Origin: an uncultured Acidobacteriota bacterium
GTDB taxonomy: Bacteria; Acidobacteriota; Thermoanaerobaculia; UBA5066; DATFVB01
NCBI GenBank assembly: GCA_963813155.1
Contig: CAWEYG010000002.1
Location: forward strand, 544,001 to 608,000
Reading direction: 5' to 3'
DNA: 64,000 nt
The notes below the pieces were generated by a model. The model was not told the origin of the DNA. It was given only the letters and a program-made list of their open reading frames with translations, and made no database searches. Made by a program: the position numbers and the translations under genes. Shown in pieces: positions 34,846 through 52,631 of the stretch. How positions within the stretch are numbered: the first letter of the stretch is position 1; every line of letters starts with the position of its first letter.

Positions 34846-34864
34846 GGAAACCTCCGGTTACGGT

Positions 34865-34910
34865 CTTGATCGTTCGGGATTCAGCAGCGATGCTGTCAAA
34901 AGGCGAGCGA
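34865..34910 (-). ncRNA. Candidate cis-regulatory leader motif, copy C
   Basis: TCGCTCGCCTTTTGACAGCATCGCTGCTGAATCCCGAACGATCAAG, 13 nt downstream of TGG-TATGCT. Confidence 0.6.
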
Positions 34911-35090
34911 TGCGGAAAACGCAAGCATACCATGCCTTTTCTCGGCTCGGGCTCGCGCCCGGCGGAGCCTTCCTCTGGCGGCGGGCGGGCCGACGCCCTA
35001 TGCTCGGGCGATGAAGATCGTCACTCGCCGAGCGGTTTCGTCCGCGGCGGAGATTCTGCTAACCTCCCCGCAGAAAACGCGGAGCGGCCC

Positions 35091-36299
35091 TTGGAACTGA
35101 CGGAAACCTTTCAGGGAGAGCTTCGGCAGATCCCCGTGCCGATGGTGCTTCATCGAATCGTCGGCGCCCGGGCGAAAGGCACCCTCACCCTCACGAAGCC
35201 CGGCGAAACGGTCCATCTCTTTTTCGTCGGCGGCGAGCTGAAAACCGCCGCGACGACGCGGAAGGGCATGCGGATCGGCGAGATGTTGATTCTGAACGGC
35301 GTCATCGAGGAAGAAAAGATCGAAGAGGCGATCCGCTCCGTCGAACCCGGCCGCCGGGGACGAATCGGACAGCTCCTGGTCGAAAAGGGACTGCTCACGC
35401 AGGACGTTCTCGATGGGGAGATCCGCAGGCATTTCGAGGAAATCTTCTTCTCGTGCTTCCTCTGGAAGGACGGCGAGTTTGCGTTCCTCCCCTCTCCGGG
35501 CGAGCTCGATTCCGGCGTCGCCGTCGACCTGCCGACCGCCGCCCTGATCATCGAGGGCGTTCGCCGGGTTCCGGAGCAGGATCGGGCTCTGGAAGCGCTC
35601 GGAGATCCCGCGAATTTCGGCAGGACGACGGACCTGGCCCTTCACGTCGACTCGCTCCGCCTCAACTCGGAGGAGGCCTACCTGCTCTCGCTTTGCGACG
35701 GCAAGACGCGGCTGCGCGACATCCTCCGACTCGGGACTTCCCGCGAGCAGACCGGCCAGACTCTCTACACGCTGTTCGCGTGCGGCCTGATCGAGTTCGC
35801 GCCCTCTTTCTTCGAGGGGCCGGCGCCGCCGCCCTTCGACGACAGCCCCCTCGTTCTTCCGATCGCGCAGCGCGGCGAACGGGAGTCCGACCCGAAGGTT
35901 CGCTTCGAGCAGGCCCGCGCCGGATACGTCGACGCCCTGGGTCTCCTCGAGAAGCGCGATTACTACGGGGCGATCCTCCTGCTCCAGGAAAGCGTGAGGC
36001 TCGCGCCGGAGAATTCGGAATATCGGTACCGGCTCGCCGGTGCCCTCTCGCACAACAAGAACTGGCGGCAACGCGCTCTCGACCAGTACCGGGAGGCCCT
36101 CCGGCTTGACCCGATGCGGCAGTCGCTGATGATCGATTACGCGGAGCTTCTCCTGCTGTGCCAGAGAGCGCCCGATGCGCTCCGGATCGCTCGGGCGCTG
36201 ATCGACCGCTACCCCGCCGAAACGAGCAACCGCGAATTGCTTCGGCGTTGCGAACAGGCGGCGCGCGAGCACCCCGGGTTTCGCGGCCTCACCGTTTGA
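35091..36299 (+). CDS. DUF4388 protein with MshEN-like repeats and C-terminal TPR; start uncertain
   Basis: FQGEL...KGTLTL...LFFVGG; RIGEMLILNGVI / RIGQLLVEKGLL; WKDGEFAF; TPR helices. Confidence 0.8.
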   Translation: MELTETFQGELRQIPVPMVLHRIVGARAKGTLTLTKPGETVHLFFVGGELKTAATTRKGMRIGEMLILNGVIEEEKIEEAIRSVEPGRRGRIGQLLVEKGLLTQDVLDGEIRRHFEEIFFSCFLWKDGEFAFLPSPGELDSGVAVDLPTAALIIEGVRRVPEQDRALEALGDPANFGRTTDLALHVDSLRLNSEEAYLLSLCDGKTRLRDILRLGTSREQTGQTLYTLFACGLIEFAPSFFEGPAPPPFDDSPLVLPIAQRGERESDPKVRFEQARAGYVDALGLLEKRDYYGAILLLQESVRLAPENSEYRYRLAGALSHNKNWRQRALDQYREALRLDPMRQSLMIDYAELLLLCQRAPDALRIARALIDRYPAETSNRELLRRCEQAAREHPGFRGLTV

Positions 36300-36316
36300 C
36301 ACCCACGTCTTGAAGC

Positions 36317-36346
36317 AAAAGGAAAAGGCGGGCACGAAGCCCGCCT
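36317..36346 (-). terminator. Rho-independent terminator of RRM gene 1
   Basis: AGGCGGGC-N5-GCCCGCCT followed by a T-rich tail on minus strand. Confidence 0.7.
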
Positions 36347-36371
36347 CGAACATTCCGGATCCGAAGGGAAA

Positions 36372-36644
36372 TTAGTTCGCGGCGAGCGCGGGGGCGGGAG
36401 CGGCCTTCGAGCGCGCCTCGTTGACCGTGAGCGGCTTGCCGCCGTGATCTTTCCCGTTGAGTCCGGCGATCGCGGCCTTCGCCTCTTCGTCGCTCGCGAA
36501 TTCGGCGAAGCCGAAACCCTTCGCCTTGCCGGTGGCCTTGTCCATGACCAGGGCAACGCTGTCGGTCTTGCCGAACGGCGTGACGAGATCGCGGAGGTTC
36601 TGTTCCGTGGAATCGGGGGAGAGGTTGCCGATGTAGATTTTCAT
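36372..36644 (-). CDS. RRM-domain RNA-binding protein 1
   Basis: RNP2 IYIGNL, RNP1 KGFGFAEF, LTVNEAR. Confidence 0.95.
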   Translation of the reverse strand: MKIYIGNLSPDSTEQNLRDLVTPFGKTDSVALVMDKATGKAKGFGFAEFASDEEAKAAIAGLNGKDHGGKPLTVNEARSKAAPAPALAAN

Positions 36645-36732
36645 GGTCGAGCCCTTCTGCGCCGGCGGTCCGGCGTGTTGACGGCGATCAATCTGGGACG
36701 CAGCACTCGCCGACGCGTGTGGCGCCATCTCG

Positions 36733-36778
36733 CTTGGGATTCGTTCGAAAACTCAGCAGTTCTGAGAAGGGCGAGCGA
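36733..36778 (-). ncRNA. Candidate cis-regulatory leader motif, copy A
   Basis: TCGCTCGCCCTTCTCAGAACTGCTGAGTTTTCGAACGAATCCCAAG, 15 nt downstream of TGA-TATCCT. Confidence 0.6.
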
Positions 36779-36799
36779 AACGAGACCAGTTGCAGGATA

Positions 36800-37513
36800 T
36801 CACAACAACCTGGCTCGCAGGCTCGCGTACCACGCGCATTCGGCCCGAAGGGGACACGCCTCGCAGCGCGGATGCGCCGCCTTGCACAGCTCCTGGCCGT
36901 GCTGGCGCAGCAGCTGGTGGGCGCGGATCAGGAAATCGAAATCCGCGGGAAGCTCGGGCGCCGCCGCCTCGGTCGCGGAGCGATAGCTCTTGCCGTAGTT
37001 CCTGTCTTCGGTCCCGTAGCCGAGCCGCAGCAGCACGCGCAGCGCGTTGGAGTCGGGCGCGAGCGACGGAGCGCCGCGCGAAAAGAGAAGAATCTTGTCC
37101 GCTCCCGGCTCTCCGATTCCCGGAAAGCGCTTCAGGAGCCTTCGCGTACCCACTTTCGGCGCGCGGGACTCCGCGCGAAGCCGCTCGAGGCCCGCCTCCC
37201 GCGCGATCTCGGCCGCTTCCTGAAGCTTGCGCGCCCGGTCGAGCGGCCGCATTCCCCCGGACCCGATCGCCGCGGCCAGTGCTTCGAGCGGAGCGGCGAG
37301 GATTCGATCCGGCGAGACGCCGACCTTCCGGCGCAGCTCCCGAAACACCTCGCGCCGCCGCGCATCGTCCACCAGGTACGCGGCATTCTCGAAGAGCACG
37401 ACTTCGAACGGATCCGTGACCGGGAGCGGCGCGGGCTCGCCGTAAAACCTTGCGAGCTTTCCCACGAGCAATTGCAGCCGCCTCTGTTTTCTCACTTCCT
37501 GTTCACGAGGCAT
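36800..37513 (-). CDS. HhH-GPD / endonuclease III-like DNA glycosylase
   Basis: LKRFPGIGEPGAD HhH; CKAAHPRCEACPLRAEC 4Fe-4S motif. Confidence 0.85.
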   Translation of the reverse strand: MPREQEVRKQRRLQLLVGKLARFYGEPAPLPVTDPFEVVLFENAAYLVDDARRREVFRELRRKVGVSPDRILAAPLEALAAAIGSGGMRPLDRARKLQEAAEIAREAGLERLRAESRAPKVGTRRLLKRFPGIGEPGADKILLFSRGAPSLAPDSNALRVLLRLGYGTEDRNYGKSYRSATEAAAPELPADFDFLIRAHQLLRQHGQELCKAAHPRCEACPLRAECAWYASLRARLL

Positions 37514-37582
37514 CGTAGCAGGGGCAAGCGGCTCGCGCCGGCCCGCGATTCGGGATACGCTGACCAAAAGGAGGGGCGCCCA

Positions 37583-37741
37583 ATGTCATTCAAATCCAGA
37601 GGCCTCGGGATGATCCTTCTCTCCATCTGGCTGATCCTGCTCGGTCTGCTTCCGCTCCTGTCGATTACGTTTGCCCACTCGGGTCAGCTGCTGGACGTTC
37701 TGGCCATTGCGGCCGGCATCTTCCTGCTCATGGGTCGTTAG
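37583..37741 (+). CDS. Small 2-TM membrane protein
   Basis: AAGGAGG RBS; LGMILLSIWLILLGL...LAIAAGIFLLMGR. Confidence 0.8.
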   Translation: MSFKSRGLGMILLSIWLILLGLLPLLSITFAHSGQLLDVLAIAAGIFLLMGR

Positions 37742-37826
37742 CTACCCGGCAGGGTGAGGCACCAGCCGGCCGGCCTCACCCGCCCTTCACCCCGCTTTTT
37801 GGGCGTTTTCCTCGAAATTTCCAGCG

Positions 37827-37842
37827 TGGCACACATCTTGCG
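37827..37842 (+). promoter_or_regulatory. sigma54 promoter
   Basis: TGGCACACATCTTGCG. Confidence 0.75.
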
Positions 37843-37874
37843 CTGAAAATTGGCGGCAGAGGAGACACAAGAAA

Positions 37875-38789
37875 ATGGAACGACACCCTTCCCGACGACG
37901 CTCGGCGATCTGGACTTTCGCGGCGCTCTTGAGCGCGGTTTCGGCCGCGGCAATCGGCGCTACTTCTTTCGAGCTTCCGCCGCTCGTCCAGCCGGCGACG
38001 AAGGATCTTCACGCGGGCAAGGTCGTCTGGGTCGACCTCGTCACGCCCGATCTCGACGGCGCCAAGCGCTTCTATTCGGGACTGTTCGGCTGGACGTACA
38101 AGGACATCCACACCGGCGACACGGACTATTCGGTCGCCCTGCTCGACGGGCAGCCCGTCGGCGGCCTCGTCCACCGGGCCGTGCCGTCGGGAGAACATCG
38201 GCAGCCGGCGTGGCTGACGTTCCTCTCCGTGCGCGACGCGGCAGAAGCGGAGCGCCAGGCACTTTCCCATGGCGGAAAGGTCCTGAGGAAGGCCAGTGAG
38301 TACCCCCGGCGCGGACGGCAGGAGATCTTCACCGATCCGCAGGGCGCCGTGTTCGCCGTGCTGCAATCCTCGAGCGGCGATCCCGCCGATCTCCTCGCCG
38401 AACCGGGCGACTGGATCTGGAGCTCGCTGATCACGAGCGATCCCGACGCGGGCGCCGCGTTCTACCAGTCGCTCTTCGGATACGAAGTCTTCGACCTGAA
38501 TGCCGCCGATCAGCGCGAGCACCTGTTGCTCGCGACGGACGGCTATGCGCGAGCGAGCGCGAGCCCGTTGCCGGATTCCGGCAAGAGTCACTCCCACTGG
38601 CTCAACTTCGTGCGAGTCGCCAGCGCCCGGGACTCGGCGGCGAAGGCCGCCGCGCTCGGCGGGCGGGTGCTCGTCGAGCCGCATGTGGACCGGCAGGGCG
38701 GAATGGTCGCGGTCGTCGCCGATCCGTCGGGCGCGCCCTTCGGCCTCCTCGAATGGTCGGATACCGAAAGCAAAGAGGTCACAAAATGA
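37875..38789 (+). CDS. Exported VOC/glyoxalase two-domain protein
   Basis: WVDLVTPDLDGAKRFYSGLFGW, DPQGAVF, DPSGAPFGL; N-terminal signal. Confidence 0.9.
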   Translation: MERHPSRRRSAIWTFAALLSAVSAAAIGATSFELPPLVQPATKDLHAGKVVWVDLVTPDLDGAKRFYSGLFGWTYKDIHTGDTDYSVALLDGQPVGGLVHRAVPSGEHRQPAWLTFLSVRDAAEAERQALSHGGKVLRKASEYPRRGRQEIFTDPQGAVFAVLQSSSGDPADLLAEPGDWIWSSLITSDPDAGAAFYQSLFGYEVFDLNAADQREHLLLATDGYARASASPLPDSGKSHSHWLNFVRVASARDSAAKAAALGGRVLVEPHVDRQGGMVAVVADPSGAPFGLLEWSDTESKEVTK

Positions 38790-39115
38790 AAATCACCTAC
38801 CGGCGCTGGGCAATCGGCGCGCTCGCGGCCGCGCTGCTCGCGGTCCTGTCGGGATGCGTCGCGACCGTCGACGACGGCCGCCGAGGCGGTTACGGAGTGG
38901 GCTACTACGAGCCGTATGGCCAGCCCTACGGCGGTTGGCCGTCGGGCTACCACGTCGCCCCTCCTCGCGGCGATCGCGACCGCGACACGCACAGCAGTCC
39001 GGCTCGCGAGGAGAACCGTTCCCGGAAATACCGGCCCGCGGACTCTTCCCGGCCGGTCCCCTCGCTTCCGTCCAAACGGCGTTCGAACGACCACGACCAC
39101 GATCACGGCAATTGA
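38786..39115 (+). CDS. Small Gly/Tyr-rich lipoprotein
   Basis: LSGC lipobox; 4-nt overlap with VOC gene. Confidence 0.75.
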   Translation: MKITYRRWAIGALAAALLAVLSGCVATVDDGRRGGYGVGYYEPYGQPYGGWPSGYHVAPPRGDRDRDTHSSPAREENRSRKYRPADSSRPVPSLPSKRRSNDHDHDHGN

Positions 39116-39142
39116 GAAGGGGGGAGGCCCGGCGGCCTCCCG

Positions 39143-39752
39143 TCACGCCTTCTCCAACACCCACGTCGTCATGCATCGCTGGCCGGATACGACGGTCGTC
39201 TTCAGCGGATCGAGCAGCCGGCCCCCGAGCTCCGCTGTCCAGTCGAGCAGATACCGCTCGTCCACCAGGTAGCGCTCGCTGCCGTCCGGCAGCCCGAAGC
39301 GTCTCCCCCCGATCGGCCGGAAGCGGTCTTCCATTCCGATCGTCGAGGCGAGACGGCAGAACATCAGGCCGCCCCGCTTCACGAGACGCCAGGTGCCGCG
39401 GAGCATCGCCTGGAACTGCGCTTCGTCGCGCGCGAAGTGAAGCACAGCGCTGCTCACCACGGCATCCGCGATCGCGTCGGGAAAACTGTTCGACTCGACC
39501 GCCTCTTCGCGGATGTTGGCAGAGGGAAGACTGCGGAGCGAGCTCCTGCAACAGCCGTCGCACCGCCCGGACGCTGTTCGCGTCCGGATCGAGGCCGTAG
39601 ACCTCATATGCCTCGCTCAGAAAGAACACGAGGTTGCGCCCGCTCCCGCAGCCGGCGTCGAGCATCGTCATTCCCGGCGCGATTCGCCCGCGCAGGATCT
39701 GGTCGAACAGGTAGATGTCGATCTGCCCGAAGAGCGAGGAAAGGTCGGTCAC
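39143..39752 (-). CDS. Class I SAM methyltransferase; frameshift near 39535
   Basis: IDIYLFDQILRG, LDAGCGSGRN then SSAVLHFA...PLKTTVV in second frame. Confidence 0.85.
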
Positions 39753-39782
39753 GCGAAGGTATGGTAGCAGGCCGGCCGCCGG

Positions 39783-40556
39783 CTACCGCGGGTACTGCGG
39801 CCCCGCGAGCTCGATCGTCCACAGCGGCCCGCCTTCGTAGAACTGGCTCTCGGATTTCGCGAAACCCGGCGCGTCTCCGACCGACGATCCACACGGAAGC
39901 GTCCTTCGGCTGTTTCCCGACGATCGGCGCGACCGCGCCGCGAGCCCGCGAAGGTCCACGTGGATGTTGAATCGCTCCGCCCGGTACGACTGCCGGCCGT
40001 TGGAAATCGTCTCGAATCCCGCGCGCGAGACCACGAGCTTCACGAGCCGCGGCTTCGGGGCGGCGACGAGCATCGGAAACGTCGTCGAGGCGATCTCGGG
40101 AGCAAGGTCTTTCAGGAGAGTCGACGGCAGACCGTTCGCCAGGTCGGGAGGAAGCTTCATCCGCTCGTCGAGGAATTTTTCCACGCCTTTCTCCGCGTAC
40201 TTCACGGTCACGCGACCGCTCTTTTCGTCGATCGACACTTCCATCGGACCCGGAAAGCTCGGGCCGCGCTGGACGAGGCGGTCGCTCACGAGCCGAAACC
40301 GCCCGCGCTGCGTGAAGACCGTCGTCTCGTCCTGCAGCGAGCCGTCCCGGAAATGGAAAACCAGGCGGCTCGTGACGCGGTCTCCCCGCGCGAACTGGAT
40401 CGAATCGCCGTCGGCGATCACGGCGCCGTCGGGACCTCGGAGAGCCAGAAATCCGCGCACGACGCCCTCCGGGTAGCGGACGGGCACGAAATCCCCGCGA
40501 AGAATCGCGCCGCCAGCAAGGAAGGCGAGAACAAAGAGCGCGAGCCGTCTCTTCAC
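39783..40556 (-). CDS. Secreted hypothetical protein; two compensating frameshifts near 39880-39940
   Basis: Signal-like VKRRLALFVLAFL; natural-looking segment VAPIVGKQPKDASVWIV lies in the alternate frame. Confidence 0.75.
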   Translation of the reverse strand: MKRRLALFVLAFLAGGAILRGDFVPVRYPEGVVRGFLALRGPDGAVIADGDSIQFARGDRVTSRLVFHFRDGSLQDETTVFTQRGRFRLVSDRLVQRGPSFPGPMEVSIDEKSGRVTVKYAEKGVEKFLDERMKLPPDLANGLPSTLLKDLAPEIASTTFPMLVAAPKPRLVKLVVSRAGFETISNGRQSYRAERFNIHVDLRGLAARSRRSSGNSRRTLPCGSSVGDAPGFAKSESQFYEGGPLWTIELAGPQYPR

Positions 40557-40568
40557 GCAGCTTTCGAG

Positions 40569-40584
40569 AGCAAGACCCATACCG
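40569..40584 (-). promoter_or_regulatory. sigma54-like promoter (near-leaderless)
   Basis: CGGTATGGGTCTTGCT, 12 nt before GTG 40556. Confidence 0.45.
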
Positions 40585-40657
40585 ACGCCGGTCGGCTTTC
40601 CCGGTTGCCTTTTTTTCTCCTCCGGCATGGAATGCGCCCATGAGATCGAAATTCACA

Positions 40658-42111
40658 ATGCACGGATCCCGGTTTCTTCCGCTCGCCGCCCTCCTCCTCG
40701 CAGCGGGGTGCGCCTCGACGGGGCCGTCGGCCGGCCCGGGTCCGGCCGGGCGCCCGCGCCGTCGGAGCGCGCGACGCTCGGCATGGAGGGAAAGCCGATC
40801 ACGCGGCAGCTCCGCAAGAAGCTGGGCCTGCCGGCAAACCTCGTCGGCGTCGTCGCGGGAGACGTGCTTCCCGGCGGCCCGGCCGCGCTCGCGGGAGTTC
40901 GCCCGAACGACGTCGTCGAGCAGATCGGCGGCGCGAACATCCTCGTCGATTGCGATTTCCTCGACGCCGCGTTCAACCGCCCGTCCGGCCCGGTCGGCGT
41001 CGTCGTCCGCCGAGGGGCCTCGAAGCTCTCCCTGACGGTCGCCGCCGCGGGACAGGACGCTCTCTTCGCGAAGAGCTGCCGCGCAGGAGTCCTCGCGGCC
41101 TGCTTCCGACAGGCGTGGTCGCTCGCCGGCAGCCGCGATGCCGCCGACCGCGGGCGCTCGCTCGAGCTCTACGACTCCGCCTGCCGCGCCGGCTCCGCGG
41201 ACGCGTGCACGTACCGAGGCCTGTTCCTCAGCCGGGACGGCAACCGGGAGAGCGTCGCCGTCCTCGAGCGCGCCTGCGATCTCGGGAGCGGCGGCGGGTG
41301 CGCGACGCTCGCGTTTCTCCACGCAACTGGAAAGTTCGTTCCGAAAGACGACCGCCGCGCGAATTCGCTGTACGTGAAATCCTGCGTCCTCGGCGACGAG
41401 CAGGGCTGTTACAACGAAGGGTTGATGGCGGACGAAGCGCGCGGGACCAGCCGCGATCTCTCCCGGGCCGTCGCGCGATACCGCGAGGCGTGCGACGGAG
41501 GAAGCGCGCCCGCGTGCACGAACCTCGGATTTTTCTACGAGCATGGAAGCGGAGTCGGGAAGGATGCCGCGAAAGCGGCCGCGCTCTACAAGCGGGGATG
41601 CGACGGCACCACCTGCCAGCCCTCCAACCGGAACGGCTGCGTGAACCTCGGCCGCGCGTTCCGCGACGGCACGGGCGTCGCGAAGGACCCGTCGCGGGCG
41701 GCGCCGCTCTTCCGCGATGCGTGCAATCGCGACCTCGACGCGAACGACCCCGGTTCCGAAACGAACCGGTCGCGCGCGTGCTCGCTTCTCGGCGCGCTGT
41801 ACATCGACGGCGACGGTGTGGAGAAGGACTCCTCCAGCGCGCTCCGCCTCTCCGAGCTCGGGTGCGAGCGCGGAGACTCCTTCGGGTGTTTCAACGCCGC
41901 CGCGATCACGGGAATCGGCACCGAGCGGGACGCCGCGAAGGCGGCAGGGTTCCTGGAGAAAGCGTGCGACCTCGGCGACGGGGAGGGATGCTTCGACCTC
42001 GGGGTCGACTACGAGAAGGGACGGGGCGTCTCCGCGGACCGCGACCGCGCGAAGGGTCTCTTCCGGAAGGCCTGCCAGCTCGGGTTCCGGGAGGCGTGCG
42101 GGAGGAAGTAA
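40658..42111 (+). CDS. Lipoprotein with PDZ domain and Cys-rich Sel1-like repeats; frameshift near 40748
   Basis: AAGC lipobox in other frame; PGGPAALAGVRPNDVV PDZ; repeated ACDxG..xC.NLG. Confidence 0.85.
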
Positions 42112-42124
42112 GGGCCTCGCTCGC

Positions 42125-42922: not shown

Positions 42923-42933
42923 CGGCCCGCGCG

Positions 42934-43416: not shown

Positions 43417-43507
43417 AGACTCTCCTTTTCTTCGGCCAAGCATACAAGAAAGCCCCTGCGCCTTCACGTCTTCACGTCTTCGCCTTTTCCATGAGATCTT
43501 CGCAGGC

Positions 43508-44065: not shown

Positions 44066-45831
44066 GGTCTTCGCGCGAAAACCTGGCGCTCGCTCCCGCC
44101 CTCCTCCAGCTGCAGGCCGGTCACCCGTTGCCCGTCGCTCTGGAACTCGATGAAAAACCCGGGAGGCGCGCCTTCGAGGCGAAAGCGCGTTTTGCTCACC
44201 GCCGCGAGCCGGACGGTCCAGTCTTCGCCCAGCACGGCCTGAAGGATCGTGTCCTGGTGCCGGACGACGAGCTCGTGGCCGTCCGGGGCGACGTACTTGC
44301 CCGCGAACCGGTCGAGCTCGGCGGCGGGAAGATCGATCTCGGCGGCGCGCTCGTCTTTCAATGCGAAGGGTGCCGGCTCGATTTTCGCGACGCAGCTCGT
44401 GTCCAGGCCCTTTTCCGTTCCGCGCTCGACGAGCTCCAGCCCGAGGCGATCGAGGCACTCGGTCCCCTTTTCTCCGTCGAATCCGTGGCCGCCTCCCGGA
44501 ACGACGATGTGTTTCGAGCGCGTGAGGGTCCGTGCCGCGAGCTCGCCCCAGGACGCCGGCGTCACCGGGTCGCGCTCGCCCGACATCAGAAGCGTCGGCG
44601 CATCCGACCGCACCGGTTCGTTGACGTCCGGGGGCGTTTCTCCGCGAGGCCATTCCGCGCACGCGGCCTTCTGCGCCCGAGCGCGAAAATCGCCCAGAAA
44701 AGTCCCCCGCGTCGCCCTCTCGGCTTCGTCGGGCGTGAAGAAGGCGACGTCCTCCGAACAGGTGACCGACAGGTAAAAGCCGTCCGACATCGACGTGGCG
44801 AAGTTGCCGAAGAGATACGCGCTCTCCGCGAGCGGTGCGAGGTCGCCCTGCGCCGCCATGTGGACCTGCAGGGGAATCTGCGCCGCGGTGATCGGCGTGT
44901 AGAGCATGTAGCGGATCGTCTGGGCGGCGGCGATGCGGCCGAGAACGATCTTCAACGGCTTGCCGGTGTCCGGGTCTTTCACGGTCGCTTCCGCCGGCTG
45001 CTTTCCGAGGCGGGCGAGCAGGCCGTCGATTTCTCCCCGCGTGTCCGGAAAAGCCGCGTGGCAGGGCGCCTCTTTCGCGCACGCGGCGAGCACCTGATCG
45101 AGAGCCGTCTGCGCGTCGCGGGCGAAGTACAGGGGACTCCGGGTGCCGGGCGGAACGATGCCCCCGAGCACCGCCGTTCGAACGTGTTCCGGATGCCGGC
45201 GCATGTACTCGAGCGCCGCGTTCGTGCCGTAGGAGCCGCCCTGGACGTTGACGCGATCGTAGCCGAGAGCGCCGCGCACGTCGTCCACGTCGTCCACGGC
45301 CGGGGCCGTCGTGTAGAACCTGAGATCGGCCCGCGGTTCGAGCTCTCGCCGGCAGGCGCGCACCCCTTCGACCGGCAGGAAGCTCTCCAGAAACCCGAGC
45401 ACGCCCGTGTGCCCCTGGAGCGCTTTGCAGTGGAGCCCGTTGGAATCGCCGGTCCCGCGGACGTCGACGAGCACGAGATCGCGCTTTCGATTCACCTCGG
45501 CGCCGGCCGCCGCCTCTCCCGCCGCCGACTGGACGGCCGACTCGCCCGGCCCTCCCTCGAAGAGGAAAACGGGATCGGGCTCCTTTGCGGAGCCTGTCGC
45601 CGGCAGCACGACGACGCGAAGCGAGATCTTTCGTCCGGCGCGCTTCACGCGGTCTTCCCACACCTCGAAGCGCCCGCACCGCACTTCGCGTTCGATTCCG
45701 GGCACCTTGCACGGCGAAAGGTCGAGGTGCGGAGGGTTCGGCCGGGCACTCGGCGCGCCTTTCGGAGTTTCCGCCGCGAGAGCTCCAGCCGCGAGAAACA
45801 GGAAGAGAGCCGGGAAACGAATTTTCTTCAT
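44062..45831 (-). CDS. Secreted alpha/beta hydrolase (TAP-like peptidase) with C-terminal DUF3471-like domain
   Basis: GGPG, DVRGTG, GGSYGT, DPVTP, GH. Confidence 0.9.
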   Translation of the reverse strand: MKKIRFPALFLFLAAGALAAETPKGAPSARPNPPHLDLSPCKVPGIEREVRCGRFEVWEDRVKRAGRKISLRVVVLPATGSAKEPDPVFLFEGGPGESAVQSAAGEAAAGAEVNRKRDLVLVDVRGTGDSNGLHCKALQGHTGVLGFLESFLPVEGVRACRRELEPRADLRFYTTAPAVDDVDDVRGALGYDRVNVQGGSYGTNAALEYMRRHPEHVRTAVLGGIVPPGTRSPLYFARDAQTALDQVLAACAKEAPCHAAFPDTRGEIDGLLARLGKQPAEATVKDPDTGKPLKIVLGRIAAAQTIRYMLYTPITAAQIPLQVHMAAQGDLAPLAESAYLFGNFATSMSDGFYLSVTCSEDVAFFTPDEAERATRGTFLGDFRARAQKAACAEWPRGETPPDVNEPVRSDAPTLLMSGERDPVTPASWGELAARTLTRSKHIVVPGGGHGFDGEKGTECLDRLGLELVERGTEKGLDTSCVAKIEPAPFALKDERAAEIDLPAAELDRFAGKYVAPDGHELVVRHQDTILQAVLGEDWTVRLAAVSKTRFRLEGAPPGFFIEFQSDGQRVTGLQLEEGGSERQVFARRP

Positions 45832-45919
45832 ACGTAACGTTACAACGCAATCGCTTCGGGAGAGTTCCCGAAATCGCGAACCAACGGGTTAGAAATCTCC
45901 CCGGTGGTAGGATGGCCCC

Positions 45920-46339
45920 ATGCTCAAGACATTCGATCCGATCGAAATGACACGTCCCATGCGCGAAGAGCTCGTTCACGCCGGCTTCGAAGAACTGAAG
46001 ACTCCCGAGCAGGTCGACCGGGTCCTTGGCGAGAAGTCCGGCTCCGTCCTCGTATTCGTGAACTCCGTCTGCGGATGTGCGGCCGGGTCCGCGCGGCCGG
46101 GCGTCGTCGCCGCCGTCAAAGGTCTCGCGTCTCCGCCGCGGCTGACGACCGTGTTCGCCGGGCAGGACCGCGAGGCGACGGAGAAGGCCCGCGGATACTT
46201 CCGCAACTTTCCGCCCTCGTCGCCGTCGGTCGTCCTGCTGAAGGACGGCGCGCCCGTTTACATCCTGGAACGCCGCCAGATCGAGGGCCGCTCGCCCGAT
46301 TTCGTCGCCGCCGAGCTGCGGCGCGCCCTCCAGGGCTGA
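45920..46339 (+). CDS. BrxA/BrxB family bacilliredoxin
   Basis: PMREEL, VNSVCGCAAGSARPG, TVFAGQD.EAT..AR, PPSSPS. Confidence 0.93.
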   Translation: MLKTFDPIEMTRPMREELVHAGFEELKTPEQVDRVLGEKSGSVLVFVNSVCGCAAGSARPGVVAAVKGLASPPRLTTVFAGQDREATEKARGYFRNFPPSSPSVVLLKDGAPVYILERRQIEGRSPDFVAAELRRALQG

Positions 46340-46359
46340 GCCGGGACGGGTCGCCCGAC

Positions 46360-46803
46360 ATGGACCCGGGCGGCACTCGACAACCCTCCGAGCGAAGGAT
46401 CTTCACCGGTCTCGCGATCGCCGGATGGGCGATGTGGTTCGCGATCGCAAAGGGATACAACGGCGAGCGCGAGGGCGACTCCTCCGCCTGGCTCACCTGC
46501 TTCACCCTGTGGGCGCCTGCGTCCTATCTTCTCGTCCTGAACCGGCGCTCCTGGGCGAGGCCCGGCAGGGCCCACTCCCTCCTCATCGCGTCCGCCTCCG
46601 TCTTTGCCCTCGTCGAGCTGATTCTGATCTCGAACTCGGTCCATCTCCTTCCGGGCTTTCTGATCCCGAAGGCCGATCTCCCCGTCTGGATCGGCATCCC
46701 GATCTACTTCGGGGCGATGGGATCTCTCGCGGCGACGCCGCTGCTTGCGGTGATCGTCTTTCTGCAGGGCCGGTCCTCACCCCCGGCCTCAGCGAAGCCC
46801 TGA
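46360..46803 (+). CDS. 4-TM membrane protein
   Basis: Four hydrophobic segments. Confidence 0.65.
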   Translation: MDPGGTRQPSERRIFTGLAIAGWAMWFAIAKGYNGEREGDSSAWLTCFTLWAPASYLLVLNRRSWARPGRAHSLLIASASVFALVELILISNSVHLLPGFLIPKADLPVWIGIPIYFGAMGSLAATPLLAVIVFLQGRSSPPASAKP

Positions 46804-46843
46804 CTCGTCGTATGATCGGCTCAACATAAGAAAGGAGGCCCCC

Positions 46844-46984
46844 GTGTTGCTCACCATCGGGATCATTCTCCTCATCCTCTGGCTGCTGGGTTTCTTCGCT
46901 TTCCACGTTGGCAGCGGGCTCATCCACATCATTCTGATCGTCGCGGTGATCGTGATCGTCCTGCACCTTATCCGAGGCCGCTGA
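46844..46984 (+). CDS. lmo0937/DUF5670 family small membrane protein (not in ORF track)
   Basis: AAAGGAGG RBS; MLLTIGIILLILWLLGFFAFHVGSGLIHIILIVAVIVIVLHLIRGR. Confidence 0.9.
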   Translation: MLLTIGIILLILWLLGFFAFHVGSGLIHIILIVAVIVIVLHLIRGR

Positions 46985-47059
46985 CCGTCAAACCCAAGGC
47001 ATCAAAGCTCGCCCTCGACAGAATTCTCGAGACCTCATTTTTTTCGAAGGAGGGACTCC

Positions 47060-47584
47060 ATGGCCAAGCCCGGAAAATGGTTCTCCGGATTCGTATGCCT
47101 CGCTGTCCTCGGAATCGCGGCCGCCTCGTTCGCGGCCGACGCACCGAAGGCCGACGGCGCGAAAGCCAAACCCGCCATGCACGCGATGGCGAAGCCGGTC
47201 GTGTGGCCGGCCGACAAGCTCAAGTGGGTCGACGCTCCCGGGGTAACGGGCGTGAAAGTCGCGGTCCTGTGGGGAGATCCCGACAAGGGCGCGTTCGGCG
47301 CGATCCATAAGTTCCCCGCGGGCTTCAAAGCTCCCCTCCACACGCACTCGAGCGACCTGCACTGCGTCGTGATCTCGGGCACGATGATCCACGGCGAAGC
47401 GGACGGCTCGGAAACGCGGCTGCCGGCCGGCTCCTACCTGTTCGACCCGCACACCGAGCAGCACACGACCGCGTGCGATGCCGCGAGCGAGTGCGAGATG
47501 TTCGTGCAGGCGACCGGGAAGTTCGACATCCAGATGGTCGGCGCGAAGAAGATGGAAAAGAAGACGGAGAAGAAGGCGAAGTAA
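47060..47584 (+). CDS. Secreted cupin (DUF4437-like)
   Basis: LWGDP, PLHTHSS, VISG, LPAGSY, HTTAC. Confidence 0.85.
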   Translation: MAKPGKWFSGFVCLAVLGIAAASFAADAPKADGAKAKPAMHAMAKPVVWPADKLKWVDAPGVTGVKVAVLWGDPDKGAFGAIHKFPAGFKAPLHTHSSDLHCVVISGTMIHGEADGSETRLPAGSYLFDPHTEQHTTACDAASECEMFVQATGKFDIQMVGAKKMEKKTEKKAK

Positions 47585-47973
47585 ACGCTTCGCTCAGCCC
47601 GAGGAGCGAGCCAGGCCCCGGAGCGGGTCCTCGGCGCCTCCCTCGAGGAGACGCAGCGCGCCCGGCGGTGGCATCAGTCCGTGCGCGCTCCTCGGGCAAA
47701 TTTTTTCGCAAGTGAGCGTCCTCTTGAAGTTCAGGCTTTACCAGCGAAAAAACATACGCTCCTCTCGGGAGGCACCTGCGACTCGCTCTCAGCCCCGCCC
47801 CTGAGCGAAGCCGGCGGAGCGGCCCGGGGCTGACGCACTCCGCGCAGGCTGGTCTTCGAGACCCCGAGGGAAAGCGAACTGCGGCCGAGGGTCGAGAAGA
47901 CTTGCCGAGCGGAGGGCTGGGGCTGGGCGGCGGCGTCGGCGAGCGAAGTCTGACCGTGTAAAATAGCCGGGTC

Positions 47974-49486
47974 GTGCAACTCCGGTACCTCGGATCTCCG
48001 GCGCCTCCCATTCCGACCGCGAAGACACGGGCTTTCCCCGGCTCCCTCGCCGGCGTCCTTGTCGCCGTCGCGCTGTTCGGCGCCTCGCCCCCGGTGCGGG
48101 CCCAGCCCTCCGGTCTCGCACTGTCCGCGAGCTTCGCGGCGGTGACCGACGACGGAGGCGGCGTGCCGCCCGATCCGCAGGGGGCCGCCGGGCCCGAATA
48201 TCTCCTCACGATGACGAACACGCGCTTTGCCGCCCAGCGCAAGGACGGAGCGTTGGCCAGGACCTGGACGCCCGCGCAGTTCTGGGCATCTGTTTCGATG
48301 AACGATCTGCTCTTCGACCCGCGCGTGATGTACGACGCGCTGGCGGGCCGATGGATCGCCGTGATGGCGACGGCCGGCGTCACCTCGGACCCCGCCCTGC
48401 TCCTCGCGGTCTCCGACGGGACCGACCCGACGCAGGGGTGGACCTTCCGGCGGATCCCCGCCGATCCGCTCGGGAACAACGCCGCGGAGTTCCCGCTGCT
48501 CGGGGGAAACGGCCGTTGGATCTGCCTGACGGCGAACCTGATCTCGTTCTCGGGGGATAGCGACGGAGTGGCCGTTTGGGCGATCGAAAAGGCGCCGCTC
48601 TTGACCGGGACGCTGACGTTCACCCGCTTCGTGTTGCCGGATGCGGTCTCTCCCGTGGCGACCCGTCGTGACGCTCGACGCGGACCAGCCGGACGAATTC
48701 CTGCTGGAGCAGTGGTCGGAGAACAACGGCGGCCACGGCCAGCTGGAGTTGTTCCGCGTGACGGACGTCGGCGGAAGCGCGAAACTGAGGACGGTCGCGA
48801 CGATTTCCGCGGCCACGACGTGGGTCGCGCACCCGAACCCGTTCGACGCGCTGCCGCAGGTCGGGACCTCTCGCCTCATCACGGCATCGCAGGACGACGT
48901 CGCGAGCGCGTGTCTGCGAAACGGACAGATCTGGGCCGCGCAGACCGCGACGATTCCCGCGGCGGGAACCATTCCGCAACACTCCGTCGTTCAGTGGTGG
49001 CGCGTCACGACGGGGGGAGCGCTTTCGGGGTTCGGCCGGATCGGCGACGCGTCGGGACAGACCTGGCTCGCGTACCCGAGCGTCGCGGTCAACGCGCGGG
49101 ACCAGGCCGTCATCGGCTACTCGGTCTTCTCGCCGCAGGCGTACGCCTCCGCCGGGTACTCGATCCGGCCGGCGGGAGGGTGCGACGGGCAGCTTTCAAA
49201 GATCCACACGCTCCAGACGGGCCTTGGCGTCTACGTGAAACTCGATTCGACGGGCCTCAACCGGTGGGGAGACCTCTCCGAAACGGTCGTCGACCCGCAG
49301 GACGATCTTTCGATCTGGACGATCCAGGAGTACGCGGCGGCGCCGATCCAGGGCGCGAGCCGCTGGGGAACCTGGTGGGGCGGGTTTTCGCCCGCCGAGG
49401 CGGGGCGAGAAGGGGCGTGCATCGCGCCCGCGCCGGAGCAGGTCCCCGCGGGACTGCACGACCGGATCTCGAGCGGACCGCGGTAA
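47974..49486 (+). CDS. Secreted hypothetical protein (PPDP...FDP...RWGD motifs); frameshift near 48660
   Basis: PPDPQGAAGP, FDPRVMYD, YPSVAVN, NRWGDLS in two adjoining frames. Confidence 0.75.
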
Positions 49487-49504
49487 GGGCTCGCTCGACC
49501 CCGA

Positions 49505-50362
49505 TTAGACGCGGTCGAGCAGGACCATTCCCCCCATGCGCCGCATCTCCTCGCGCTTCGCCGCGGGCTGGAGCCTTCCGAGCAGCTTGAAGATCCACCC
49601 CATTTTCATCGTCCGACGCAGGCGAAACGCTTCCTCGATCGTCGAGCGGAACTCGCGCTCTTTCCAGCCGTGCGGCTCGAAGAACTTCGTCCCCTCGGCC
49701 GGAGCGAACTTGAACGGCGCGTTCGCGGAGGAGACGTGCTTGCCGACCTTCCGGTCGAGCATTTTTTTCAAGCGTGGCGACGCAATGTCGATCAACCACT
49801 GGCGCATCGCCGGGGGCGAGTGGAGGTCGTCCGCGAACGCGCCGACCTGCTCCGGAGCAAGGTACGCGAGCAGGCCCTCCGTCACCGTGAGGACGCACTT
49901 GCTCCCCTGCGCCGCGCGCACGAACAGGCCGCGGCGCGCGGCCGTGTCGGTCAGGTCCGCCGCGACCCTCTCGAACCGGCAGACGGGAGTGTCGCCGGCG
50001 AGCTTCTCGGTCTTGTAGGCGAGAATGTCCGGAAGGTCCGCCTCGATCCACCGCAGCGTCTTCGGCAAGGGCAGGCGGTAGGGACGCGTGTCGAGGCCGG
50101 CCGCAAGGTTGAGGACGCAGTCGACGCCCTCCCGCTCGATCGACCGGAGGATGATCTCGTCCATCACGGCCGTTCGGACGATCATCGGCCACGCCAGGCC
50201 GCCGACTTTCATCTTCCGGACAATCGCCTCCCCCCGGTCGCCGACGAGCTTTTTCGCGAGGGGGTCGCGGAAGATCGCGTCGGGGCGCTCGGTCTCCATG
50301 ACCCGGTACTGGGCGACCCAGAGCGCCGTGTCGGAAATGTTGCGGAGGCCGCCGTTTTCCAT
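49505..50362 (-). CDS. LCM-type SAM-dependent methyltransferase
   Basis: SDTALWVAQYR, LAAGLDTRPYRL, EGLLAYL. Confidence 0.9.
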   Translation of the reverse strand: MENGGLRNISDTALWVAQYRVMETERPDAIFRDPLAKKLVGDRGEAIVRKMKVGGLAWPMIVRTAVMDEIILRSIEREGVDCVLNLAAGLDTRPYRLPLPKTLRWIEADLPDILAYKTEKLAGDTPVCRFERVAADLTDTAARRGLFVRAAQGSKCVLTVTEGLLAYLAPEQVGAFADDLHSPPAMRQWLIDIASPRLKKMLDRKVGKHVSSANAPFKFAPAEGTKFFEPHGWKEREFRSTIEEAFRLRRTMKMGWIFKLLGRLQPAAKREEMRRMGGMVLLDRV

Positions 50363-50421
50363 GGATTTCTTGGAATCTTATCCGATTCGGCATAGGATCG
50401 AGGTCCAACAGGGGAAAAACG

Positions 50422-51924
50422 ATTCGAGACTTCGACACGGCCCCCGAGGCCGCCGCCGGGATATTCGAGAGCGAGGAGACGTTTCGCGCGCTCGTCGAGA
50501 CGAGCGCCGCCGCCGTCGTGCTGTTCGACGCGGAAGGAAAGATCCTCTACGCGACACCCGCGACCTCGAAACTCTGCGGCCTGGAGTTCCGGGAAATTCC
50601 CGGCCACCGCGTGACGGAGTTCCTCGAGCCCGCCGACGCCGACGCCGTGAAGGACCTCTTCGAGGAATTTCGCTCCCGGGGCCGCCTCGCGAAAGAAATG
50701 GAGCTTCGCTGCTGCGGGGCCGACGGAACACGCAAGGTTCTCAACTCGGTGTGGGCGAACCGCCTGAAAGATCCCGCGATCTCCGCGATCGTCGCGACGT
50801 TCCGCGACGTGACGGAGTACCGCCGCGGCCTCGCGCTGCAGTCGGCGCTCTACCGCATCGCCGCGAAGGCCAGCTCGGTGGAGGAAATGAGCGAGTTCTA
50901 CGCGTCGATCCACGCGATCGTCGGCGAGCTTCTCGACGCGAAGAACTTCTACATCTCGCTGTACGACCCGGCCGCGGACCTCCTGACGTTTCCGTATTTC
51001 GTCGACGAAAGCGACGAGTCTCCCGCGCCGATGCGGCCCGGCCGGAGCCTCACGGCGCTCGTGCTGCGGAGCGGCCAGCCGCTCTTCGTGACCGACGAAA
51101 CGTTCTACGAGATGGCGTCCCGCGGCGAGGTCGACCTCGTCGGCGCAGCGTCGGCGGACTGGCTCGGGGTTCCGCTCAAGATCGGCGGCAAGACGATCGG
51201 GGTGCTCGCCGTGCAGAGCTACGTGCCGACGACTCGCTACGTCGAGTCGGAAAAGGCCGTGCTCACGTTCGTTTCCCAGCACGTCGCCGCGGCCCTCGAG
51301 CACAAGCGCGCGATCGAGGCGCTGCGGGCCTCCGAGGAGCGGTACCGGCAGCTTTCGGAACGAAACCAGTACCTGGCCTTCCACGACGCGCTCACGGGCC
51401 TTCCCAACCGCGCGCTCCTCGCGGACCGCCTCACGCTCGCCCTTGCCCGCTGTCGGCGGGAAAAGACGGGCCTCGGCGTGCTCTTCGTCGATCTCGACCG
51501 TTTCAAGGACGTCAACGATTTTCTCGGCCACCACACGGGCGACCGGCTGCTCGAGACCGTCGCGCGGCGGCTCAAGTCGTGCGTGCGCGACGAGGACACG
51601 ATCGCCCGTGTCGGAGGCGACGAGTTCGTTCTCGTGTTGAACCGGATCTCTTCCGAAACCGACGCGCGCATCGTGTCGGAGAAGATCCTCAAGGCGATCG
51701 CGGAGCCGATCGAGATCGCCGGCGAACCGTTGCGAGTGAGCGCGAGCATCGGCCTGAGCCTTTTTCCTTATCACGGCGCCGAACCGGAGGATCTCGTGCG
51801 CCGGGCCGACGCCGCGATGTACGCCGTCAAAAGCTCCGGACGCAATGGCTTTCGAGTCGCTCCGCCGCGGCAGCTCGACGGCCGCGACTTCGCGGCCGCG
51901 GAGGGGAAAGAACCATGGCGATGA
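50422..51924 (+). CDS. PAS-GAF-GGDEF diguanylate cyclase; probable ATT start at 50422 (first canonical start 50518)
   Basis: HDALTGLPNR, DLDRFKDVND, GGDEF. Confidence 0.92.
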   Translation: MRDFDTAPEAAAGIFESEETFRALVETSAAAVVLFDAEGKILYATPATSKLCGLEFREIPGHRVTEFLEPADADAVKDLFEEFRSRGRLAKEMELRCCGADGTRKVLNSVWANRLKDPAISAIVATFRDVTEYRRGLALQSALYRIAAKASSVEEMSEFYASIHAIVGELLDAKNFYISLYDPAADLLTFPYFVDESDESPAPMRPGRSLTALVLRSGQPLFVTDETFYEMASRGEVDLVGAASADWLGVPLKIGGKTIGVLAVQSYVPTTRYVESEKAVLTFVSQHVAAALEHKRAIEALRASEERYRQLSERNQYLAFHDALTGLPNRALLADRLTLALARCRREKTGLGVLFVDLDRFKDVNDFLGHHTGDRLLETVARRLKSCVRDEDTIARVGGDEFVLVLNRISSETDARIVSEKILKAIAEPIEIAGEPLRVSASIGLSLFPYHGAEPEDLVRRADAAMYAVKSSGRNGFRVAPPRQLDGRDFAAAEGKEPWR

Positions 51925-52406
51925 TCGAGCCGATCGTGGACGAATTCCTTCGCGAAGCGGAAACGACGAAGCGCGTTCTCGCGCGCGTGCCGACGGCCCG
52001 GCTCGCCTGGAAGCCGCACGAGAAGTCGCGCTCTCTCGGCGAGCTGGCCTGGCACGTGGCCTCGATCCCGCGGCGCGTGTCGGCAATGGCGCTGCTGGAA
52101 GACGCCGATGTGATGGCCCACAAGCAGCCGCCGCTGCCGGAAACGGCCGAAGCGATGCTCGAGGCCTTCACCGCGGGAATTCCCGAGACGAAAGAGAACC
52201 TCCTTAAGCTCGGCGACGAGGACCTCCGGAAGACGATTCACTTTCACCGGGGCGAGGTCACGATGGCCCGCCTTCCGAAAATCGGATTTCTGCGGGCCGT
52301 CATGCTGAACCACTGGTATCACCACCGCGGACAGCTCTCGATCTACCTGCGGCTGCTCGACGTGCCGGTGCCTTCGATCTACGGCCCGAGCGCCGACGAA
52401 AGCTAG
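51915..52406 (+). CDS. DinB/YfiT family protein
   Basis: WKPHEKSRSLGELAWH, HWYHHRGQL..YLR...VPSIYGPSADE. Confidence 0.92.
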   Translation: MAMIEPIVDEFLREAETTKRVLARVPTARLAWKPHEKSRSLGELAWHVASIPRRVSAMALLEDADVMAHKQPPLPETAEAMLEAFTAGIPETKENLLKLGDEDLRKTIHFHRGEVTMARLPKIGFLRAVMLNHWYHHRGQLSIYLRLLDVPVPSIYGPSADES

Positions 52407-52446
52407 GTAGCCCGCGCGGCCCCAGCGAGCCCCAAAACCCGGGGGC

Positions 52447-52475
52447 TTGCATTCCCCCACGACATTTGCTATTCT
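52447..52475 (+). promoter_or_regulatory. sigma70 promoter of RRM gene 2
   Basis: TTGCAT-N17-TATTCT with extended TG. Confidence 0.75.
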
Positions 52476-52489
52476 TAAGGCTCTTCGAA

Positions 52490-52535
52490 TCGCTCGCCTT
52501 TTTCAGCTCGCCTGTAGAATTCCGACCGATCTAAG
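52490..52535 (+). ncRNA. Candidate cis-regulatory leader motif, copy B
   Basis: TCGCTCGCCTTTTTCAGCTCGCCTGTAGAATTCCGACCGATCTAAG, 14 nt downstream of -10. Confidence 0.6.
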
Positions 52536-52631
52536 AAGAAACGTTGGGATGTTTTTGCTGCGACCCGCCCTACGTAAATTGACAAGCGGCAAGGATTCGC
52601 CGGATTTTCCGGCACAAAGGAAGGTACCCAA

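Follow-up and report, generated by a model that had tools for sequence, protein, structure and literature searches.

The window, a 64,000-nt stretch of a Thermoanaerobaculia (Acidobacteriota) genome, holds three intergenic copies of a 46-nt segment, at 34865-34910 (−, copy 1), 36733-36778 (−, copy 2) and 52490-52535 (+, copy 3), each oriented toward the gene downstream. Coordinates, length, intergenic position and shared fold are as given in the original prediction, and the same outer stem, TCG-C-TCG paired with CGA-M-CGA, can form in all three copies. The length of exactly 46 nt also stands, but its equality among the copies is due to compensating indels: ungapped identity is just 18-24 of 46 positions, and aligned identity is 74-85%. 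The first part of the predicted consensus, in a fixed-length rendering made for the present analysis, matched one of the three copies. As proposed, copies 2 and 3 lead RRM genes (Pfam RRM_1), and copy 1 leads genes, unrelated to these, for two small proteins without family.

The 46-nt segment forms the core of a 5′ leader that extends over ~135 nt (length quartiles 129-146 nt). The core is enclosed by an outer stem, P1, and copies 2 and 3 have a second domain, putatively knotted, and one more hairpin ahead of the Shine-Dalgarno (SD) site. P1 and the pseudoknot domain had been overlooked. The leader of copy 3 follows an extended −10 (TGn-TAnnnT, 52467-52475, +) and is composed of domain 1, a long interrupted hairpin P1-P3 (52481-52541, containing the core), and hairpin P4 (52544-52567), the loop of which (52555-52561) supplies the 5′ side of a pseudoknot or switch helix, pairing over 7 bp with a 3′ strand at 52586-52592. 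An optional hairpin P5 (52599-52613) and the SD (52617-52624) precede the gene for a 101-aa RRM protein with a Gly-rich tail (52632-52937), which matches Pfam RRM_1 and, above cut-off, NCBIfam Rbp_regulator. An intrinsic terminator follows at 52963-52992.

Copy 2, on the minus strand, has the same layout: extended −10 (TGn-TAnnnT, 36794-36802), domain 1 (36726-36787, containing its core), P4 (36697-36726, apex 36707-36714 pairing with the downstream strand), the 3′ strand of the pseudoknot or switch helix (36680-36687, with one U·U mismatch), P5 (36660-36675) and SD (36652-36658), followed by the gene for a 90-aa RRM protein (Pfam RRM_1, 36372-36644) and a predicted intrinsic terminator (36317-36347). 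In this copy, the SD region could form 8 bp with the domain-1 loop strand at 36765-36772. Copy 1, also on the minus strand, has an extended −10 (TGn-TAnnnT, 34924-34932) and a domain 1 (34855-34920, containing its core) with P1 decayed, and has neither P4 nor pseudoknot; a short hairpin predicted at 34845-34857 holds the SD and touches the GTG start. The genes behind it encode an 81-aa protein of an unnamed small family (34600-34845, −; a helix plus three strands, with conserved arginines) and a 99-aa three-helix-bundle protein (34273-34572, −) with 22 close homologues and no family. No intrinsic terminator was found inside the window's leaders. Searches of the 3.8-Mb genome with two covariance models and with an HMM built from the copies gave strong matches at the three copies and at one site on a further contig, an assembly duplicate of the copy-2 region (99.3% identical), and at no others. 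Weak fifth matches were rejected, as promoter and gene context were absent.

The placement of the element at the 5′ end of the transcript, 13-15 nt downstream of an extended −10, is borne out by relatives. The leader begins ~7 nt past the extended −10 element. All of 100 leaders have TAnnnT at a distance of 2-7 nt from the model start, on its upstream side; about one third of these leaders had been pre-filtered for the presence of a −10. The distance is 5 nt in 74, TG is present in 85, and a control window gave 4 of 100. A strict scan for sigma-70 promoters gave none at the three copies, and the −10 assignment, which is a prediction, rests on this conservation of position. Comparison thus shows the predicted transcription start to be the base of domain 1. 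A weak hint in favor of the predicted transcript is a soil metatranscriptome contig (X3/11; 485 nt, depth 49), which would span ~52478-52962, from predicted start to terminator. The sequencing-run matches make up small shares (≤0.26) and are all contigs, so that start site, strand and level are not readable from them.

Domain 1 is an interrupted hairpin of ~22 bp at the very 5′ end, the outer and apical stems of which covary. Its cells are paired in 91.9% of cases, vs 85.9% when shuffled and 36-51% when slid, and double changes are present in 17 of 22 pairs. P2 is its most conserved part and, because it is almost invariant, gives no covariation support. Conserved C·A and C·C mismatches interrupt the hairpin: C19 is opposite G in 1 of 100 leaders, and C23·C87 is found in 87 of 100. 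The spacing between the arms varies widely. Single domain-1 hairpins are only modestly stable (z of −0.3, −1.1 and −1.9 for the three copies); the support for the structure is comparative.

Domain 2 is a hairpin whose loop pairs with the word directly upstream of the SD site. This knot helix has at least 5 contiguous pairs in 87 of 95 leaders, vs 44% in shuffles, and displays compensatory changes; in a plain MAFFT alignment, 89.8% of it is paired and double changes occur at 4 of 6 pairs, and RNAalifold selects it unaided. The linker is 6-15 nt in most leaders. The complementarity between loop and downstream word, the covariation and the steady linker are those of a candidate H-type pseudoknot. 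On the present alignments, the long-range pairing may be either a pseudoknot or a mutually exclusive switch helix, and the data fit both equally.

With the covariance model, the leader was found in 6 of 6 and 78 of 80 genomes of two families and in 0 of 63 genomes of a sister family (f2), where RRM genes have a leader of a different type; the rest of the class and phylum gave chance matches only. There are 236 matches in 85 genomes, at 1-6 copies per genome. In 24 genomes, 59 of 68 RRM genes found by Pfam alone are preceded by the leader (a hand tally), and one RRM paralogue of family f1 is without it in 7 of 7 genomes. Viewed from the leader, RRM genes are downstream of 120 of 152; behind the others lie a gene for a secreted protein, a pair of small-protein genes, or a gene whose RRM partner has been lost. 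A model termed R1 matched 1 of 80 RRM loci of a species collection, at a locus whose protein is identical to the window's, and none of the Bacteroidota RRM loci among L036-L114; a strict pattern had 0 matches in viral contigs. Ten weak matches elsewhere in the phylum, outside the order, were rejected, all lying within long ORFs with no RRM gene nearby, as were weak matches in the class and in f2 that lacked promoter and gene context. A REP-like repeat was rejected as well, given 1-6 copies per genome and the position of the examined copies between −10 and start codon. The scan of this and related genomes, proposed with the original prediction, found matches concentrated before RRM genes in two families. 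None of the outcomes named beforehand as contrary to it, i.e., scatter without regard to gene orientation, a start downstream of the motif, a known Rfam family, or no conservation upstream of orthologous RRM genes, was encountered.

The non-RRM leaders look like promoter-plus-leader units inherited from RRM leaders. Those of secreted proteins nest within one RRM-paralogue clade, three "other" genes stand second in RRM operons that have lost the RRM reading frame, and in one genus (g2) the small-protein leader is ~500 nt behind an RRM leader. Domain 1 is kept alone in the small-protein leaders, and its identity is ~0.81-0.84, vs ~0.53 for the promoter flank; therefore, domain 1 has been under selection after capture. 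The terms "regulon" and "not a relic of duplication" are weakened by the apparent inheritance. For the non-RRM genes, Pfam and NCBIfam gave no significant family, the Atlas no usable match, and the PDB no significant match of fold. No metabolic theme unites the genes downstream, and the non-RRM genes offer no cold clue.

A cold-shock-domain protein (Csp) is encoded in 2 of 61 genomes of the order, and RRM proteins in 41 of 41; Csps number 0 of 27 in f2. In an order with hardly any Csps, RRM proteins probably act in place of cold-shock RNA chaperones, and 2-4 RRM paralogues share the leader. In nested-structure models of 42 leaders, which cannot hold a pseudoknot, SD access is 0.38-0.42 from 5 to 45 °C; thermometer behavior was rejected for these models. 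No SD-blocking helix is common to all leaders; in 12 of 95 ensembles the SD is paired with domain 1. The domain-1 loop pairs with its own SD at −4.5 kcal/mol, vs −3.9 for others (p 0.0004, without kinship correction). This anti-SD pairing is clade-limited and, as the effect stems from a few clades, was rejected as a general mechanism. No pairing between 5′ and 3′ UTRs was seen (−52.4 vs −52.3 ± 0.5).

The leader is almost certainly a functional leader RNA. It is best read as a putative cis-regulatory 5′ leader of rbp (single-RRM) mRNAs that is specific to a lineage of two Thermoanaerobaculia families, and the claim of a conserved cis-element at the 5′ end of RRM mRNAs holds for an uncatalogued, covarying RNA. 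Most likely the leader governs the amount of protein produced. As to its job, we lean slightly toward RRM feedback and/or cold control. Control would be post-transcriptional, acting on translation initiation and mRNA lifetime, with RRM proteins binding or refolding the leader. Folded into its 5′ hairpin and knot, the leader would shield the mRNA while the ribosome site stays open, so that output would be high when the structures are stable and free RRM protein is scarce, e.g., after a shift to cold. Accumulating RRM protein would loosen domain 1 or the knot and lower output. The result would be a negative feedback common to the 2-4 paralogues, and genes with an inherited promoter-leader unit would obey the same control.

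Several observations count against feedback or cold control. The sister family f2 is Csp-free too, yet has a different leader. SD access is flat in the nested models, a common SD-blocking helix is absent, and a paralogue in f1 lacks the leader. RRM proteins, according to a section of PMC11697453, favor single-stranded RNA, whereas the conserved letters here are mostly paired.

An RNA-intrinsic thermosensor or folding switch, like that of cspA, would dispense with RRM binding and set P4 against the loop-downstream helix, with temperature and transcription kinetics determining the balance. P4 and the alternative helix are indeed competing MFE folds across leaders, P1 forms in just 0.25-0.45 of the full-leader ensemble, secreted-protein leaders have an SD-occluding hairpin that overlaps the 3′ strand of the knot, and the order is nearly without Csps. 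Nevertheless, we consider this explanation unlikely: SD access does not respond to temperature in the nested models, the near-invariant sequence of P2 would be needless in a purely thermal device, and copy 1 retains domain 1 only. Domain 1 might instead serve the processing or stability of the mRNA, either as an RNase III-type site or as the target of a double-strand-binding protein, and determine its half-life, with the knot as structural guard. The ~22-bp helix at the very 5′ end, the RNase III encoded in the genome, and the persistence of domain 1 alone in small-protein leaders would suit such a role. RNase III sites, however, are usually not sequence-invariant, and the RNA contig continues through domain 1 into the gene, although contigs cannot exclude partial cleavage; the proposal seems improbable.

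A long shot is a self-contained two-domain RNA sensor, in which the mismatches would sense temperature along with pH, an ion or a metabolite, and the knot beside the SD would switch translation. If true, it would be a portable stress switch for Csp-free soil Acidobacteriota, captured several times by unrelated genes. Even less probable is a riboswitch-like sensor of a small molecule, ion or pH, with the mismatch-bearing domain 1 as sensor and the knot by the SD as expression platform. Few unpaired nucleotides are conserved, there is no multi-way junction, the genes downstream lack a metabolic theme, and a common SD switch was not found; the invariant non-canonical positions, C19 and C23·C87, and a pseudoknot near the SD, which is common in riboswitches, are the points in its favor. 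It is scarcely credible that the element acts as DNA, i.e., as an inverted-repeat operator for a transcription factor, or is left over, without a role, from the duplication of a promoter. Conservation of the TCG/CGA arms extends to both sides, just behind the promoter, C·A reads as G·U on the opposite strand, which folds more stably in two of the three copies, and the non-RRM copies derive from RRM leaders. Yet the arm spacing is widely variable, inner and outer stems and the knot helix covary, conservation is far above that of the flank, and the model pairs of the sense strand include 153 G·U against 32 C·A, although two mismatch positions add 96 C·A.

With the leader, for which a cis-regulatory role on rbp mRNAs is the preferred reading, a lineage of uncultured Acidobacteriota gains a well-supported RNA family whose predicted start and structure are defined and whose knot covaries. 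A preprint on Bacteroides (PMC13370968) asks whether rbp 5′ UTRs serve as thermosensors or as sites of feedback, and names this as open. Because natural variants exist in the family, i.e., compensatory changes, a domain-1-only deletion (copy 1) and leaders moved to unrelated genes, the question is directly testable in reporters. The surprise is moderate, since RRM genes are already known to have conserved leaders.

The element was thought to be an unrecognised one, and no Rfam family matches it: the window has no gathering-level match, and weak matches in 30 loci fall outside the leaders. The literature covered has no description of the leader motif, and the main texts of PMC11109978 and PMC8632094 do not mention "RRM"; the supplements of PMC11109978 and PMC5737381 could hold a related motif. 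The model of the Chlorobi-RRM RNA motif (RF01697) has no match in the window and no weak match over leaders in the 30 loci. That motif is found in 5′ UTRs of RRM genes, and feedback has been proposed for it. Weinberg et al. 2010 (PMC2864571), in the portion concerned with it, list it as lineage-restricted, RRM-linked and probably cis-regulatory, and describe ~70 nt of AU-rich RNA in Chlorobi with short hairpins ending in an intrinsic terminator. The likeness is that of a lineage-restricted structured RNA tied to RRM genes (here, 120 of 152); unlike Chlorobi-RRM, the present leader, in a host of another phylum, has ~135 nt, a long interrupted 5′ hairpin, a putative pseudoknot or switch helix, and no terminator.

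The 5′ UTR of E. coli cspA, a thermosensor, is a long structured leader that belongs to the gene of a small RNA chaperone and can fold in alternative ways close to the ribosome site. Its length is given as 159 nt in a passage of PMC13370968. Unlike it, the present leader precedes RRM rather than CSD genes and has no Rfam match. In Anabaena, a different phylum, the 5′ UTR of the RRM gene rbpA1 is reportedly involved in cold-regulated expression, a role like the one proposed here. For Bacteroides thetaiotaomicron, parts of the preprint PMC13370968 report rbpA/B/C 5′ UTRs of 122-155 nt and show cold induction and redundant negative feedback, and an excerpt of PMC11697453 places an RbpB CLIP site on its own mRNA. 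Those UTRs, in the same parts of PMC13370968, are without a reported shared structure, unlike the leader described here. The two systems are alike in UTR length, in having several RRM paralogues, and in having few Csps; as in Bacteroides, 5′ UTRs of 120-160 nt stand before several rbp paralogues in a Csp-poor organism.

The 46-nt element is the core of a 5′ leader RNA of about 135 nt. Its three copies lie where the original prediction placed them, at 34865–34910 (−, copy 1), 36733–36778 (−, copy 2) and 52490–52535 (+, copy 3), each on the strand of its gene and between an extended −10-like element and the start codon. The genes behind copies 2 and 3 do encode single-RRM proteins (Pfam RRM_1, E 1e-20 and 1e-24), and copy 1 leads a small-protein operon encoding proteins of 81 and 99 aa, neither of a named family. 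The length of exactly 46 nt is correct, but its constancy is accidental (ungapped identity is 18–24 of 46). The 81-aa protein (34600–34845, −) belongs to a small unnamed family of 14 representatives with invariant arginines; its domain is doubled in protein P0040 and N-terminal in the integrase-like protein P0045. A DUF4388/TPR gene (34866–36299, +) intervenes on the opposite strand between copy 2's RRM gene and copy 1, whereas in genus g2 the copy-1-type and copy-2-type units are adjacent.

Scanning the source genome (3.8 Mb, 91% complete) with one HMM and two covariance models gave strong matches only at the three copies and on contig C15, which duplicates the copy-2 region (C2:580074–586255) at 99.3% identity. 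The small contigs C7, C8, C15 and C19 repeat parts of the genome, and three contigs carry a tmRNA call; both observations point to duplicates that stem from strains or from the assembly. A third RRM gene lacks the element. No cold-shock-domain (CSD) gene was found in this genome; Hfq is present.

The leader is confined to two families of Thermoanaerobaculia, f1 and f3. A first pattern matched 23 of 41 relatives (reversed control, one match), part of the matches being chance occurrences within coding DNA. With a stricter one, 34 of 401 genomes from the class gave matches, only one of them outside f1 and f3. Of the two covariance models, R1 was trained on 34 rows selected by pattern and R2 on 101, one of them probably false. 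At E 1e-4, R2 matched 6/6 f1, 78/80 f3 and 0/63 genomes of the sister family f2, with 236 matches in total in 85 genomes (the source genome included; 1–6 per genome). The rest of the class and phylum yielded single weak matches only; ten at phylum level were rejected, as all lie inside long ORFs. A further 79 RRM loci, most of them in other phyla, gave no match, nor did viral contigs. Eight of ten metagenome matches are true leaders, and for seven of these the contig also carries an RRM gene. Two of the leaders in the alignments, tree and tallies come from G008, an unpublished genome; none of the claims depends on it alone.

The leader has two domains. Domain 1 is a hairpin in which an asymmetric loop separates the 7-bp P1 from P2, and a CC/YC loop separates P2 from the variable P3. 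P2 consists of two TCG/CGA helices flanking a C that stands opposite A, C, U or nothing, and opposite G in 1 of 100 leaders. In alignment A5, 91.9% of cells are paired (shuffled 85.9; slid 36–51) and double changes are seen at 17 of 22 pairs, matched by none of 500 shuffles, a significance that is overstated because the rows of A5 are related and were fitted to the model. P2 is almost invariant and thus lacks covariation support. On the sense strand the model pairs include 153 G·U and 32 C·A, with a further 96 C·A at the two mismatch positions, and in two of the three window copies it is the antisense strand that has the more stable fold. The strand assignment therefore comes mainly from promoter and gene direction.

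Domain 2 begins immediately after P1 with hairpin P4, the loop of which is complementary to a word usually 6–15 nt downstream, itself followed by an optional hairpin P5 and the Shine-Dalgarno (SD) sequence. Among 95 leaders, small-protein leaders excluded, 87 have at least five contiguous loop–word pairs (shuffled, 44%), with a mean energy of −10.0 against −4.7 kcal/mol. A leader's own partner scores best in five of eight loop groups, and RNAalifold selects the helix unaided. In a MAFFT-only alignment of 55 of the 95 (the 40 omitted being three misaligned groups and near-duplicates), the six-pair helix is 89.8% paired, with double changes in four pairs (G-C to C-G, C-G to U-A and G-C to U-A). 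Doubly changed cells number 104 against 49.5 in shuffles (0/500), but in its number of doubly changed pairs, 13, the alignment does not exceed the shuffled 11.4 (80/500). The compensatory changes stem from a handful of clades rather than dozens of events. The helix may either coexist with P4, as an H-type pseudoknot, or replace it. Copies 2 and 3 have the domain 2 helix; copy 1 has domain 1 only.

The leader sits at the predicted 5′ end of the transcript. TAnnnT occurs 2–7 nt upstream of the model start in 100/100 leaders, about a third of them pre-filtered for a −10 (control window, 4/100); in 74 the distance is exactly 5 nt, and 85 have the TG. A strict sigma-70 scan found no promoter at the window copies. 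Seventeen RNA runs contain a small share of the copy-3 locus, and four of them were compared with it. One 485-nt RNA contig (depth 49) differs at 15 positions from 52496–52940, to which it aligns; counting its unaligned ends, it would cover about 52478–52962, from predicted start to terminator. This is a hint of the predicted copy-3 ends, since contigs prove neither ends nor strand.

To avoid circularity, RRM genes were chosen by Pfam alone. In 24 f1/f3 genomes the leader precedes 59 of 68 distinct RRM genes (hand tally; three with weak scores, one gene judged from coordinates only). The exceptions comprise two downstream genes of leader-bearing tandems and seven instances of a single f1 paralogue that lacks the leader. 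That paralogue, found near 908270 on contig C3 of the source genome (L031) and at loci L150, L152, L153, L155, L161 and L167, has a short leader with two hairpins, alike across these genomes. None of the 24 f2 RRM genes examined (of 51) has a significant match.

Alignments A2–A4 hold 153 distinct −10-bearing matches, a subset of the 236, one of which is an antisense artefact. The other 152 lead 120 RRM genes, 22 genes for a secreted Pro/Ala-rich protein anchored to the membrane at its C-terminus, six small-protein pairs, three genes for a 95–106-aa protein and one unknown ORF. In a tree of 100 leaders, seven secreted-protein leaders form a single clade within an RRM-paralogue group; the 95–106-aa gene is usually second in an RRM operon and stands directly behind the leader in three genomes; in g2 an RRM leader precedes the small-protein leader by about 500 nt. 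As judged from these arrangements, the non-RRM genes inherited a promoter–leader unit. This weakens the original view that the element is not just a relic of duplication, but after inheritance domain 1 identity is 0.81–0.84 and that of the promoter flank about 0.53. In G002 (L115:1124–1204, −) the first small-protein gene has shrunk to a 27-codon remnant, with domain 1 and the 99-aa gene retained. The secreted proteins (L030:1615–2259, L121, L127, L266 and others) are 88–265 aa long and carry a signal peptide, a membrane helix at the C-terminus and a basic tail; no family was found for them. In f3 up to two or three copies occur per genome, each behind a leader.

No intrinsic terminator was found within the leaders, and control is thus probably exerted on translation or mRNA decay. 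RRM genes occur in 41/41 relatives (1–4 each) and CSD proteins in 2 of 61 genomes of the order; it follows that RRM proteins plausibly take the place of cold-shock proteins (Csps) there. The rbp genes of Bacteroides, with UTRs of 122–155 nt, show cold induction and mutual repression (PMC13370968), and RbpB has a CLIP site within its own transcript and a preference for single-stranded RNA (PMC11697453). With these precedents and the RRM/CSD distribution, we favour, at somewhat better than even chances, a leader that would serve shared RRM feedback with cold control. Three observations count against it: nested models give an SD access that hardly varies with temperature, no SD-blocking helix common to the leaders was found, and f2 is also without Csps yet has a different leader. 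An intrinsic thermosensor is an unlikely alternative to such feedback. A processing or stability site, for which the genome does encode RNase III, is less probable again, a ligand or pH sensor is quite improbable, and a DNA operator or relic slightly more so. The idea of 5′/3′ pairing was also checked on the leaders and does not apply.

The f2 leader belongs to one RRM paralogue (L194:370–521, L195, L197, L198, L200, L201, L203, L207, L168, L172 and L173). Within its roughly 130 nt, a highly conserved hairpin close to the 5′ end is joined by a C-rich linker to a second, covarying hairpin that precedes the SD; pairing of a 5′ strand rich in pyrimidines into the first hairpin is also possible. 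It matches neither R1 nor R2, and the three loci tested have no Rfam match.

The f1/f3 leader, too, has no match in Rfam, consistent with the original statement that the RNA was not recognised, and a literature search, with the supplements of two papers beyond its reach, found no description of it. We conclude that the RNA family is real and new and that its knotted architecture sets it apart. Among catalogued families the nearest is Chlorobi-RRM (RF01697), which shares the link to RRM genes but differs in sequence, shape and taxon (PMC2864571). By analogy, the leader would work like the known leaders of RRM genes.
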